This document shows positions 12,604 through 16,497 of a stretch of 40,000 bases of DNA, piece by piece. The notes below the pieces were generated by a model that worked only from the letters and a program-made list of their open reading frames with translations, had not been told where the DNA came from and made no database searches. The position numbers and the translations under genes are program-made. The stretch comes from Microbulbifer sp. TB1203 (lineage in GTDB: Bacteria; Pseudomonadota; Gammaproteobacteria; Pseudomonadales; Cellvibrionaceae): the NCBI RefSeq assembly GCF_030997045.1, contig NZ_CP116899.1, forward strand, positions 282,111-322,110, written 5' to 3'. Positions within the stretch are counted from its first letter, which is position 1. Every line of letters starts with the position of its first letter.

Positions 12604-13078
12604 TTGAAGATCATCGATCCCCTGCCGCGACCGATCCGCGATATCGAGCACGCCTCGATTCCGATGAGCGACGGAACCCGGCTGGCGGCGCGGATCTGGA
12701 TGCCGGAGAACGCCGAAGCCGATCCAGTTCCCGCCATCCTGGAGTACATTCCCTACCGCCGGAGGGACAACACCCGGGCCCGGGACGACATCATGCACCC
12801 GTGGTTTGCTGCCCACGGCTACGCCTGCGTTCGGGTGGACATCCGCGGAAGCGGGGATTCGGAAGGCGTGTTGGAGGATGAGTATCTGCAACAGGAACTC
12901 GACGACGGGGTGGAGATCCTCCGCTGGATCGCCCGACAGCCCTGGTGTGACGGTAAGGTGGGCATGATCGGGATCTCCTGGGGCGGCTTCAACGGACTGC
13001 AGATCGCCGCCCTCAGGCCCCCGGAACTCAAGGCCGTGGTGAGTGTGGCCTCCACCGACGACCGCTACGCGGACGACG
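12604..13078 (+). CDS. CocE/NonD-family (S15 X-Pro dipeptidyl-peptidase-like) hydrolase, exon 1
   Basis: TTG start 7 nt after AAGGAG. It carries RLAARIWMPE...PAILEYIPYRRRD and the nucleophile elbow GISWGG. The family-like sequence ends at ...STDDRYADD, after which the frame runs into intron RNA. Confidence 0.8.
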
Positions 13079-13625
13079 GTGCGCCACGAAGGCGCACTGG
13101 AGGATGTGAATCCTCCGTGCAGCCGTGCTGCACAAGAGATGAGGGCGGGCCCCTCGGAGCCGCCGTGCAGGCGGAGGCTTCAAACCACCTACTGCTGCTG
13201 CACTTAAAAGGTGTGGTAGTGAGCGAGTATGGAAAAGGCCGGTCAAGAACCGGTCAGGTAAGGGCCGTGAAGTCGAACGCAAGTGAACCGCTGATGACGT
13301 GTCGAAAGCGTAGGGACGACGTCAAAACCGGGGGGAAGTCGTTAACCCGGGATAAGTCTGGGAGAAACCTGTCTACTGCCCAGGCGGCGTCCGGCATAAA
13401 GGCGGCGAGAACACGGCTCAGGCTCTTGTGTGGAACGTGGGAACCTGTCACCCCGATGCTAAGGGAGCGATGCAAGTGGAAGCCCCACGAGTATCTGAGT
13501 ACCAATGCGGGGTACAGGGGCGGAGCAACCTGTAGTAGTGAGGAAGGCTCTGTAATGGAGCTGGAGCGAAGGGGTTGCCCTATCCAGCCTGAGACAAGAG
13601 TGCAACCAGCAATGGGAGGACACTC

Positions 13626-14870
13626 TTGAATCAGGCGAAGTCATTTCCTATCACTAAACGTCAGGTGTGGGAAGCCTACAAACGAGTCAAGGCCAATAAG
13701 GGCGGGGAAGGCGTAGACGGTCAGACCCTGGAGATGTTTGAAGAGAAGCTGGAAGGCAATCTCTATAAACTCTGGAATCGACTGGCGTCTGGTAGCTACA
13801 TACCCCCACCGGTCAAACGCGTGGAGATTCCCAAGGCGGACGGTGGTGTTCGTCCACTGGGAATTCCAACGGTTGCGGACCGGGTTGCCCAAATGGTAGT
13901 CAAACAAGCCCTGGAGCCGGACCTGGAACGTCATTTTCATCCGGACTCCTACGGCTATCGGCCGGGCAAGTCAGCCCGTCAGGCGATTGGACAGGCGCGC
14001 AAGCGCTGCTGGCGCAACGACTGGGTCGTTGATCTGGATATCAGGGGTTTCTTCGATAACATCGATCATGAACTCTTGATGCGAGCGGTGCGCCACCACA
14101 CCCAAGACAAATGGGTGCTGCTCTACATCGAGCGATGGCTGACAGCCCCGGTGCAACTGAATGGTGGGGCATTACAGGAGAGGACCAAGGGCACCCCGCA
14201 AGGGGGTGTGGTCAGTCCTCTGCTGGCGAACCTGTTCTTGCACCATACCTTCGATGCGTGGATGCAAAGGCACTATCCGAGCATTCCCTTCGAGCGGTAC
14301 GCCGATGATAGTGTTTGTCACTGCCGCACACGGAAGCAGGCCGAACATCTGAAAAATGCGCTGGAACAGCGCTTTGCAGATTGTGGACTGGAACTTCATC
14401 CGGAGAAGACCAAGATTGTCTACTGCAAAGACGACGATCGACGTCTGGACTATCCCGCCACCAGTTTCGATTTTCTGGGTTACACCTTTCGCCCGAGAAG
14501 ATCGAAAAATCGGAAGGGAAAGTTCTTCATCAACTTCAGTCCGGCGATCAGCAACAAAGCGGCGAAAGCAATCCGGCAGGAAGTACGCAGCTGGAAACTG
14601 CATCTGCGCAGCGACAAGTCACTGGAAGACTTGGCAAGGATGTTCAACGCGGTGATCCGCGGCTGGATCAATTACTACAGCGCATTTTACAAGTCAGCGC
14701 TGTATACAACCCTCCGGCGGATTGACCGTAGGCTCGTAATTTGGGCAACTCGCAAGTTCAAAAGACTGCGGGGCCACAGGAGGCGAGCAACCCACTGGTT
14801 GGAGCGTATTGCGCGCAGACAGCCGGGGTTGTTTGCCCATTGGCGTTTATTACATGGACAGGCTGGGTAG
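13626..14870 (+). CDS. group II intron-encoded reverse transcriptase/maturase (no endonuclease domain)
   Basis: 414-aa ORF with a TTG start 6 nt after GGGAGGA. RT blocks are PLGIPTVADRVAQ, YGYRPGKSA, DLDIRGFFDNIDH, GTPQGGVVSPLLANLFL, RYADDSV, LELHPEKTKIV and FDFLGYTF. The maturase X domain is AVIRGWINYY. It ends without an HNH/En domain. Confidence 0.9.
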   Translation: MNQAKSFPITKRQVWEAYKRVKANKGGEGVDGQTLEMFEEKLEGNLYKLWNRLASGSYIPPPVKRVEIPKADGGVRPLGIPTVADRVAQMVVKQALEPDLERHFHPDSYGYRPGKSARQAIGQARKRCWRNDWVVDLDIRGFFDNIDHELLMRAVRHHTQDKWVLLYIERWLTAPVQLNGGALQERTKGTPQGGVVSPLLANLFLHHTFDAWMQRHYPSIPFERYADDSVCHCRTRKQAEHLKNALEQRFADCGLELHPEKTKIVYCKDDDRRLDYPATSFDFLGYTFRPRRSKNRKGKFFINFSPAISNKAAKAIRQEVRSWKLHLRSDKSLEDLARMFNAVIRGWINYYSAFYKSALYTTLRRIDRRLVIWATRKFKRLRGHRRRATHWLERIARRQPGLFAHWRLLHGQAG

Positions 14871-14873
14871 GAG

Positions 14874-14947
14874 GAGCCGGATGAGCGGAGACGTTCACGT
14901 CCGGTTCTGTGAGCGCCTCGGGGGGAGGGTCCCCGGGGCGACTCGAC
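14874..14947 (+). other. group II intron ribozyme domains V and VI
   Basis: Domain V is GAGCCGGAUGAGCGGAGACGUUCACGUCCGGUUC, with the AGC triad, a GAGA tetraloop and an AC bulge. Domain VI pairs GCGCC... with ...GGCG[A]C, leaving A14941 bulged 7 nt from the 3' splice site. Confidence 0.8.
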
Positions 14948-16497
14948 TCCACCATATGGGCGGTTGCCTGTTGGGGGACAACCTCTCCTGGGCCTCCACC
15001 ATGTTCGCCTTCAACTCTCTGCCGCCGGATCCGCAGATCGTGGGGGAGCGATGGCGGGAACTGTGGTTTCAGCGACTCCGGGGCAGCGGTTTCTGGCTGG
15101 AGAAGTGGCTGCGCCACCAGCGAAGGGACGAATACTGGAAGCACGGCTCGGTCTGCGAGGAGTGGAGTGCCATCCAGTGTCCGGTAATGGCCGTCTCCGG
15201 CTGGGCGGACGGCTACACCAACGCGGTATTCCGGCTGCTGGCCAAGCTGCAGGTGCCCCGCCTGGGCCTGGTGGGGCCCTGGAGCCATAAGTATCCCCAC
15301 CAGGGAATCCCCGGGCCCGCCATCGGGTTCCTTCAGGAATGCCTGCGTTGGTGGGATCACTGGTTAAAGGGGAAGGAGACCGGAATCATGGAGGAGCCCA
15401 TGCTCCGGGTCTGGATGCAGGATCACGAGCCCCCCACCACCTTCTATGAGGAGCGCCCCGGCCGCTGGGTTGGAGAACCCGAGTGGCCCTCGCCGAACAC
15501 CCGGGAGTGCCCCCTGACTCTGGCCAGCCCCGGGACCCTGGAATGGCCCGGGGCGGAAGTGGCAGAGAAAATAATGACCATACAGTCTCCCCTTTCGGTG
15601 GGGCTATTCGCCGGCAAATGGTGCTCCTATGCCGCTACCCCGGACCTGCCCCACGACCAGCGCGAAGAGGATGGCGGCGCATTGGTCTTCGATTCCGCTC
15701 AACTGGGGGAATCCCTGGAGATCCTGGGGGCCGCCCGGCTGGAGTTGGAGCTCGCCGCCGACCGGCCGGTGGCGATGCTGGCCGTCCGCCTGTCCGACGT
15801 GGCCCCCGATGACAAGGCGACCCGGGTGACCTACGGGCTGCTCAATCTCACCCACCGCGAAGGGTCGGAGGCGCCCCGGCCCCTGGAGCCGGGCAGGCGC
15901 TACCGCATCCGGATGGAGCTCAACAACATCGGCCACTCCTTCCCCTCGGGCAACCGTCTGCGGCTGTCGATCTCCACCTCCTACTTTCCCTTGGCCTGGC
16001 CGGCCCCGGAGCCGGCTCGGCTGACCATCTTTACCGGAGTCAGTCGCCTGGTGCTGCCCGAGCGCCCCCGCCGGGATGCCGAGGATCAGGCCATCGCCTT
16101 TCCCCCGCCGGAAGGTGCCCGGCCCCTGGCCACCCGGAGGGTCCAGGCGGGCCAGCACAAGTGGCGTGTGATCCGGGATCTGGAAACCGACATCTCCACC
16201 CTGGAGGTGATCAACGATGACGGCGTCGTTCACATCGAATCGGTGGACCTGGAGATGCAGCGAAAGGCCCTGGAGTGGTACAGCTACCGGGGATACGACT
16301 ACACCTCCCCGCGGGGGGAGACGCTTTGGGAGTGGGGTTACCGGCGGGGAGACTGGGAAATCCGCACGGTAACCCACACGGTGCTCGATTCCACCCCATC
16401 CCATTTCTGCATTCACGCCGCCTTGGACGCCTACGAGGGAAAGAAACGGGTCTATTCCGACAACTGGGACGTAAAAATACCCCGCGATCTGGTCTGA
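14948..16497 (+). CDS. CocE/NonD-family hydrolase, exon 2
   Basis: The frame continues as (V)HHMGGCLLGDNLSWAS...SGWADGY...GPWSHKYP and then a long beta-rich C-terminal domain. The first 46 codons of track ORF 14809..16497 are intron sequence (IEP tail, DV, DVI). Confidence 0.8.

Follow-up and report, generated by a model that had tools for sequence, protein, structure and literature searches.

An intact group II intron splits a CocE/NonD hydrolase gene of Microbulbifer sp. TB1203 and probably strayed there from a lineage that inserts at the YADD codons of reverse transcriptase genes

We analyzed a stretch of 40,000 nucleotides from Microbulbifer sp. TB1203 (contig NZ_CP116899.1, positions 282,111 to 322,110 of the forward strand; this whole stretch is referred to below as the window, and coordinates count from its first letter), in which a group II intron lies inside a gene of the CocE/NonD hydrolase family. 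The locus consists of three adjoining features on the + strand. Exon 1 of the hydrolase gene (12604..13078) opens with a TTG start, holds codons 1-158 and the first base of codon 159, and carries the GISWGG nucleophile motif. The complete intron follows (13079..14947; 1869 nt, from 5' GUGCG to GAC 3'), and exon 2 (14948..16497) runs from the last two bases of codon 159 to the stop, encoding the rest of the Peptidase_S15 domain and the PepX_C domain. In GenBank the locus is annotated as two unrelated hydrolase fragments and one reverse transcriptase (RT), and recognition of the intron corrects this annotation of the hydrolase gene.

When position 13078 is joined to 14948 in silico, the exons (475 + 1550 nt) give 2025 nt, a multiple of three, with a junction codon G^TC (here and below, ^ marks the insertion point). 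The resulting product of 674 aa reads ...STDDRYADD-V-HHMGGCLLGDN... across the junction. It scores 240 bits against TIGR00976 (CocE/NonD; cut-off 66), with Peptidase_S15 at residues 23-274, spanning the junction, and PepX_C at residues 304-519. Its closest database homologues are Microbulbifer proteins that are themselves 674 aa long and 84-89% identical. An alignment of 21 sequences (the spliced product and 20 homologues) is free of gaps at the junction, where DDVHHMGGCLLGDN is invariant or nearly so and no residue is missing or extra at DD-V-HH; the stretch DDRYADDVHH is nearly invariant across the hydrolase homologues. Orthologues have a GTG or TTG start at the position equivalent to the TTG at 12604. 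The only truncated relative among the 120 best CocE/NonD homologues is the 538-aa WP_308366561.1, which is the exon-2 open reading frame (ORF) as annotated in GenBank.

The corresponding empty site is found in Microbulbifer halophilus, where the sequence is uninterrupted (CGCTACGCGGACGACG^TCCACCATATGGGCGG) and identical to that of the window for 16 nt on each side of the insertion point. This species and two other Microbulbifer genomes have the order LppC-RsmI-ATP-grasp-CocE/NonD...MraZ, as in the window, with an unbroken 2025-nt gene. These sequence comparisons support the view that an intact, sense-oriented group II intron splits a CocE/NonD (peptidase S15) gene, and that its exact excision would restore the orthologous 674-codon frame. 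An earlier note, made from the letters of the window alone, had proposed such a split with one continuous frame after excision, an in-frame 13078/14948 junction with the codon G^TC, and a division of the protein that leaves GISWGG in exon 1 and the remaining core plus the C-terminal beta domain in exon 2. Recomputation, the domain searches and the homologue alignment agree with it on each point, and the empty site that it suggested looking for in related genomes is the one present in M. halophilus.

The ends of the intron are of the GUGYG/AY type, with GTGCG at 13079-13083 and a 3' terminus ...CUCGAC at 14947. The same ends are found in seven paralogous copies (see below), and they fit the empty site of M. 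halophilus. Two Rfam models match between them: RF01999 (group-II-D1D4-2) at 13141-13259 with 117.2 bits (gathering score 36), and RF00029 (domains V/VI) at 14872-14947 with 57.9 bits (gathering score 40), the latter over the full model and with its last position on 14947. RNAalifold applied to an alignment of 25 family members gave 154 pairs, 103 of them with compensatory changes, and resolved domains I-III and the base of domain IV; domains V and VI were placed by Rfam only. On the + strand, domain I (13084..13440) contains the RF01999 match, domains II (13441-13521) and III (13522-13581) are defined by the consensus structure and its covariation, and domain IV (13587..14870) holds an RT/maturase ORF at 13626-14870. 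Domain V (14874..14907, 34 nt, GAGCCGGAUGAGCGGAGACGUUCACGUCCGGUUC) has the AGC triad, an AC bulge and a GAGA tetraloop. In domain VI (14910..14945), the pairs 14910-14913/14942-14945 and 14914-14917/14937-14940 leave the candidate branch point A14941 bulged as the seventh nucleotide from the 3' end. The earlier note had read both ends, the textbook domain V and the bulged A14941 at these very positions, and the RF00029 covariance model places domain V, A14941 and the 3' end in the same way. The intron has a GC content of 56.9%, and its exons 65.5%.

The intron-encoded protein (IEP), which lies within domain IV, has 414 aa and begins with a TTG after GGGAGGA; at the alignment column of this start, its relatives have ATG, TTG or GTG. 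It contains RT blocks 0-7, with the YADD motif (FERYADDS), and an X/maturase domain. Both regions are recognized by Pfam-type domain hits (RVT_1, E = 3e-45; GIIM, E = 8e-18) and by TIGR04416, which scores 461 bits (cut-off 300) over profile positions 2-352 of 353. A D/En region is absent, and domain and profile searches of the IEP returned no nuclease domain, so the description of the protein in the note (all RT blocks, an X domain and no En) stands. Compared over 13.6 kb with GenBank record CP116898.1 (Microbulbifer sp. RZ01, at ~295 kb), the window shows a sole difference, which falls in the IEP gene and consists of five consecutive bases at 14206-14210. Here the window has GGGGGTGTGGTC (PQGGVVSPLL, the canonical RT block 4) and the record has GGGGTGTGTGTC (PQGVCVSPLL), a compensated -1/+1 indel; the other seven intron copies in CP116898.1 carry the window version. 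This discrepancy could stem from a sequencing error in the record, from a real lesion in that copy, or from a near-clonal sibling strain behind the window.

Without its ORF, the ribozyme measures 624 nt. Introns of class E/F are described as having a small ribozyme (450-700 nt without the ORF), an endonuclease-less IEP and a 5-nt domain V loop (PMC3753933). In the present family, the stem-loop Id3 ends in an invariant CCUG loop that is complementary to the invariant CAGG loop of a hairpin, and the invariance of both gives no covariation; a similar arrangement, with the alpha' motif in the terminal loop of the Id3 stem-loop, was reported for class E/F introns (PMC3753933). The domain V loop, GAGA, has 4 nt, unlike the 5-nt loop that takes the place of the 4-nt zeta' loop in that class. 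By its sequence features, the ribozyme appears IIB-like with at least one E/F-type trait and a domain V loop that does not fit E/F. We also considered class C (IIC), whose members insert just behind a terminator or attC hairpin and have a short EBS1 (exon-binding site 1) but no EBS2, and ruled it out: the targets here lie in frame within ORFs, with the codon phase fixed, the EBS1 pairing extends over 6-7 bp, and there is an EBS2. Upstream of the insertion site there is a small hairpin, CCGC-UAC-GCGG, but it is merely the R-Y-A codons.

The pairings with the exons, for which the earlier note could find no convincing candidates by eye, have now been located in domain I. EBS1 (AGUCGUU, 13337..13343, +) occupies the terminal loop of the hairpin 13328-13350 and is complementary to GAYGAYU. 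Its partner, the intron-binding site IBS1 (GACGACG, 13072..13078, +), spans positions -7 to -1, that is, the D-D codons plus one base, and pairs with it at six of seven positions. EBS2 ((A)GCGUAG, 13307..13313, +) lies in an internal loop of domain I, and its bases 13308-13313 form 6 bp with IBS2 (CUACGC, 13065..13070, +), at positions -14 to -9 within the R-Y-A codons. In all 25 aligned family members, EBS1 and IBS1 pair at 6-7 of 7 positions, each against its own target. Fully compensatory changes of EBS1 and IBS1 are seen in L027 (CACCACC with GGUGGUG), L070 (UACCAGU with ACUGGUA), L067 (UAUAUUG with CAAUGUA) and L073 (GGUGGUC with GAUCACC), where the L numbers designate individual related loci; the EBS2 pairing is fully compensatory in L067 (AGAUUAU with AUAAUCU) and L044. 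The lone imperfection at the hydrolase site is G13078 (position -1) opposite A13337; the seven copies in RT genes have U at -1 and pair at seven of seven positions.

An exact look-up of the IEP sequence showed that CP116898.1 contains the intron at least seven more times; these copies have the same start and end bases and, along their 1869 nt, 0-1 mismatch to the copy in the window. All seven lie in RT genes, with an ORF carrying RVT_1 upstream and an ORF carrying GIIM downstream, and none of them is in a hydrolase gene. Their 5' exons end in ...CG(Y/A) TAY GCR GAC GAC T^, which encodes R-Y-A-D-D plus one base. When the inner intron is removed in silico, three different RT/maturase ORFs of 442-537 aa emerge (L083, L086, L087), with TIGR04416 scores of 343-358 bits (cut-off 300). 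The copies are surrounded by ribozyme parts of outer introns that belong to two other Rfam types, D1D4-6, and D1D4-7 with its own domain V/VI. Judged from this nested sequence arrangement, the seven paralogous copies are twintrons, inserted in the sense orientation in other group II introns, which does not hold for the copy in the window. The RT-gene site has the form CGCTACGCGGACGACT^TC, and the target-site pattern of the intron is CGNTAYGCNGAYGAY. The hydrolase site, CCGCTACGCGGACGACG^TC, matches the RT site of L087 at 18 of 19 positions and encodes the peptide DRYADD^V. That one chromosome has at least eight copies at separate loci, with 0-1 mismatch, points to recent mobility. Because the copies are nearly identical, the insertion is too recent for the intact exons to be used as evidence for splicing or for purifying selection.

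A scan of a genome collection gave at least 600 pattern matches, 502 of which encode relatives of the IEP; the best 80 of these 502 loci were analyzed, and their intron ends were mapped by BLAST and the GTGYG motif. Within this set and some further relatives, there are about 30 separate junctions at which the exon closes with the codons for R-(Y/F)-A-D-D and one further base, or with a decayed form of this motif, always in the same codon phase and with IEP identities of 63-97%. The hosts of these copies belong to the Gammaproteobacteria and, as metagenome-assembled genomes (MAGs), to the Thermodesulfobacteriota, Acidobacteriota, Nitrospira, Brocadiaceae and Chlorobiaceae. A 97%-identical relative from a sequencing-run assembly (L097) is also at an RYADD motif. 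A plasmid copy of Sinorhizobium meliloti sits at CLIRYADD+T^, and a plasmid copy of Bradyrhizobium elkanii (L095) at PFERYADD+G^TC, inside the YADD of a sibling IEP of its own lineage. The plasmid element of S. meliloti and Rhizobium is rare (S. meliloti relatives occur in only five plasmid records), is 70-71% identical to the intron at the DNA level and is distinct from RmInt1. These data lend good support, at the sequence level, to YADD-codon targeting as a property of the lineage.

Other targets exist within the family. A sub-lineage comprising L053, L059 and L073-L082, mostly from MAGs of Alphaproteobacteria, inserts after K-(Y/F)-x-D-H in IS66 transposase genes (Pfam DDE_Tnp_IS66). Its EBS1 has been retargeted to GGUGGUC, matching GAYCACC, and about ten copies occur in one MAG. 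A few family members have still other targets. In a gammaproteobacterial MAG (CAWKEY010000063.1; L016:1955-3822), an intron whose IEP is 74% identical splits a GH94 gene (Glyco_hydro_94, E = 2e-86) at RYGDD^L, and this glycosyl hydrolase gene is a second cellular gene struck at a YADD look-alike. The best database hits of the hydrolase and those of the IEP fall in overlapping taxa. None of the relatives lies in a CocE/NonD gene: a tblastn search of the spliced hydrolase against 82 loci matched only the source genome, and the plasmid relatives likewise gave none.

Several observations on individual sites and copies can be added. In two Acidobacteriota MAGs (L032:1958-5689 and L038), two full intron copies stand head to tail, with no spacer, in one RYADD site. 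The IEP's own YADD codons in the window (14295-14309; CGG TAC GCC GAT GAT A^GT) fit the degenerate target motif and are unoccupied; at this site the -1 base is A, the +1 base is G, and the match to EBS1 includes G.U wobbles. The reading frame of the host gene stays open for 183 codons through domains I-III (13079-13629), and its TGA (13627-13629) overlaps the TTG start of the IEP at 13626 (TTGA). The 183-codon frame is also kept in L097, L005, L015 and L021 (IEP identity 78-97%), and L010 keeps 167 codons. We rejected the idea that this open frame is a conserved design of the family, as it is confined to a subclade and not kept by the wider family; it may translationally couple the IEP to the invaded ORF, or may be inherited chance. 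L010, from a Thiohalocapsa MAG, has in addition a 26-nt insertion of repeated GGGGTACAGGGGCG units in domain II (alignment A2, columns 456-482), apparently a tandem duplication of local sequence within a loop of the ribozyme.

We regard it as likely that the copy in the hydrolase gene is an off-target insertion by target mimicry, originating from a full-length and apparently active intron lineage whose homing site is the YADD codons in RT genes. The hydrolase would mimic this target, as it specifies DRYADD^V by the same nucleotides that make up the RT-gene site. The statement of the earlier note that the intron sits inside an enzyme gene is thus upheld, and its meaning is refined: with seven paralogues and the relatives at RT YADD codons, the hydrolase location would be that of an off-target copy and not a dedicated homing site. 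In the mechanism we propose, the lineage homes to DNA encoding R-(Y/F)-A-D-D, where EBS2 pairs with the codons for Y-A and EBS1 with those for D-D and the base that follows; it normally inserts into RT genes that belong to other group II introns, which gives rise to twintrons. The hydrolase sequence for DRYADDV (CGC UAC GCG GAC GAC G^UC) would be recognized by the intron ribonucleoprotein through the same base pairing, followed by reverse splicing into the sense strand. Since the IEP is without an endonuclease, cDNA synthesis would probably be primed at the replication fork. The + strand has a GC skew of +0.054 over the window, a value that would probably put the intron in the lagging-strand template, the placement documented for the endonuclease-less RmInt1 (PMC5894124). 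After transcription from the ATP-grasp/CocE promoter, maturase-aided folding, branching at A14941 and ligation of 13078 to 14948 would restore the 674-aa enzyme. Production of the hydrolase would then depend on splicing, as the note had also supposed.

Some points weigh against this account. The restoration of the enzyme by splicing at the hydrolase locus, which is plausible from the sequence, is its weakest step and presumes that splicing is efficient enough to yield enzyme. The A13337.G13078 mismatch could lower the efficiency of splicing or homing, even though the same mismatch at -1 is tolerated in the relatives L014, L015 and L052. The EBS2-IBS2 pairing is weak in several relatives; in class E/F introns this pairing is dispensable for self-splicing in vitro (PMC3753933). 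If the version of 14206-14210 in CP116898.1 is real, the IEP of the hydrolase locus may be impaired there, and splicing would lean on the IEP from other copies. Finally, priming at the replication fork, and with it the strand preference, draws solely on GC skew within 40 kb.

Part of this evidence would suit a dead-end insertion, that is, a real intron with poor or absent splicing in vivo, whose presence in effect knocks out the hydrolase; the exons would then be intact through recency. Eight copies with 0-1 mismatch suggest a very recent burst with no time for exon decay, the A.G mismatch affects the very base pair that adjoins the splice site, and the unspliced mRNA would give a 341-aa product whose frame enters the intron for 183 codons. 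In its natural host, RmInt1 shows very poor splicing and blocks the insertion sequence (IS) that is its target (PMC5894124), and selection is presumed to act against intragenic introns in bacteria (PMC3522654). We nevertheless consider a dead end rather unlikely. The intron keeps the sense orientation and a canonical ribozyme core (GUGCG, domain V and the bulged A) with 103 covarying pairs in its family; its IEP ORF is intact in the window, and help in trans could come from seven identical IEP genes. Living in twintrons, the lineage itself needs splicing if the outer RT is to be made.

The near invariance of DDRYADDVHH, typical of homing sites, and the empty site of M. halophilus, identical for 16 nt on each side, could also be expected if the CocE/NonD site were the genuine, evolved homing site of a resident housekeeping-gene intron, comparable to those at the groEL stop codon or in recA. 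We find this very improbable, given that all seven paralogous copies lie in RT genes, that none of the best 80 of 502 related loci and none of the plasmid relatives is in a CocE/NonD gene, and that truncation at the junction affects only the protein of this genome among the 120 best CocE/NonD homologues. A misplaced copy of a repeated 1.9-kb element would be a concern with any repeat present in at least eight copies (0-1 mismatch), the more so as the window and the public record differ by a compensated -1/+1 indel inside the intron. Yet the record is a closed 5.38-Mb chromosome, and the junctions are base-precise and in frame, involve no duplication or deletion, and fall exactly at the target motif and codon phase of the lineage, as is not expected of misassembly; an assembly artefact therefore has a negligible chance of being the explanation.

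The interrupted gene has a conserved surrounding. An ATP-grasp_4 gene (window 11262-12575) lies directly 5' of the CocE/NonD gene in all Microbulbifer genomes examined; the two genes overlap by 4 nt in the relatives and are 28 nt apart in the window, where the hydrolase start is at 12604. They probably form a conserved two-gene operon. On the other side, the RNase P RNA class A gene (RF00010, 320.5 bits) is found at 16896-17264 on the + strand, 400 nt 3' of the hydrolase gene, and between the two lies a perfect 7-nt tandem repeat (GAGTCCC x 7.3) at 16804-16854. Farther downstream, an ORF at 22018-22959 occupies the position that a Methyltransf_5 gene holds after mraZ in related Microbulbifer loci, and is a probable housekeeping gene. 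It encodes an in-frame E-R-F-A-D-D at 22213-22227 (CGCTTTGCCGATGAC A^GG), which is unoccupied and has one mismatch to the target motif.

Group II introns do occur, if uncommonly, inside protein-coding genes of bacteria; examples are known from groEL, recA, dnaN/RIR and radC (PMC4424553, PMC12584367). The specialized IIB1 introns of groEL (Avi.groEL, EcKTE56.groEL; PMC12584367) and the introns of recA, dnaN and RIR (PMC4424553, PMC12584367) lie in or abut conserved protein-coding genes whose expression in the host needs accurate splicing. These lineages are dedicated to their host-gene sites, whereas the present hydrolase copy appears to be a single stray from an RT-dedicated lineage. To specialists in the field, an intron within a gene is by itself ordinary; what is possibly new here is an explanation by mimicry of the YADD target, which is testable.

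Examples of twintrons, and of homing to specific sites in other introns, come from Methanosarcina acetivorans and Thermosynechococcus elongatus (PMC4424553, PMC2882425), and c-Ha.de.I1 inserts into itself (PMC3522654). The nested introns of M. acetivorans (Dai & Zimmerly 2003, as summarized in PMC4424553) resemble the present one in homing site-specifically into other group II introns, with retroelements as a perpetual homing site. The present intron differs from them in being bacterial and of another RNA type, in having as its target the catalytic R-Y-A-D-D codons, a target common to many phyla and, within one genome, to at least three unrelated types of outer intron, and in having one copy that escaped into an enzyme gene. 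In T. elongatus, identical inner introns are found in diverged outer introns (TeI3/TeI4), as here, and were ascribed to recent independent insertions; twintron formation was proposed as a proliferation strategy (PMC2882425). The TeI3 inner introns are ORF-less, sit in the outer ORF between its first and second ATG and rely on the outer IEP (PMC2882425), whereas the present intron has its own IEP and targets the RT active site. In Hamiltonella defensa, c-Ha.de.I1 has several copies inside its own copies at a specific position, comparable to L095 in a sibling IEP gene; no cellular-gene mimic is reported there (PMC3522654).

A further parallel is offered by RmInt1 of S. meliloti (class D), which has a similar length (~1.9 kb) and an endonuclease-less RT/maturase of ~415 aa (PMC5894124). 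Pairing of EBS1/2 with IBS1/2 guides it into another mobile element; it occasionally uses ectopic look-alike sites and prefers the lagging-strand template (PMC5894124). Its target is the IS element ISRm2011-2 (PMC5894124), and that of the present lineage RT genes. The literature that we consulted, which does not cover key older papers, contains no statement of a lineage homing to YADD codons or of peptide-motif mimicry drawing one into cellular genes. One intron-curation pipeline set twintrons aside (PMC4028801), and the discarding of twintrons by annotation pipelines may be part of the reason why such a lineage would have gone undescribed. We put it forward tentatively, with confidence somewhat short of even, that YADD-coding RT sequence is the evolved homing site of a widespread, specialized lineage of hyperparasitic introns and that this habit of the lineage is new to the literature.

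The logic of such a lineage would be like that of homing endonucleases and inteins, in that it is aimed at the invariant codons of a catalytic site, here turned on other retroelements; if the inner intron splices poorly, the RT of the outer element would be disabled. Any RT gene with suitable codons would be a potential target, including those of other introns and possibly of retrons, diversity-generating retroelements (DGRs) and defence RTs, and where a cellular gene happens to encode RY(A/G)DD, as do CocE/NonD in the window and GH94 in L016, it is possibly a collateral target. As DDRYADDV is nearly invariant in the hydrolase family, this family may act repeatedly as a decoy in organisms that carry such introns. 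In Microbulbifer, the sister species with an identical empty site and the same operon would make the cost of the intron and its splicing efficiency directly measurable. The route of a bacterial group II intron into a conserved enzyme gene would then have been chance mimicry of RT active-site codons and not a dedicated homing site, and, if this is true, collateral targeting is a concrete natural route by which mobile introns may enter conserved protein-coding genes.

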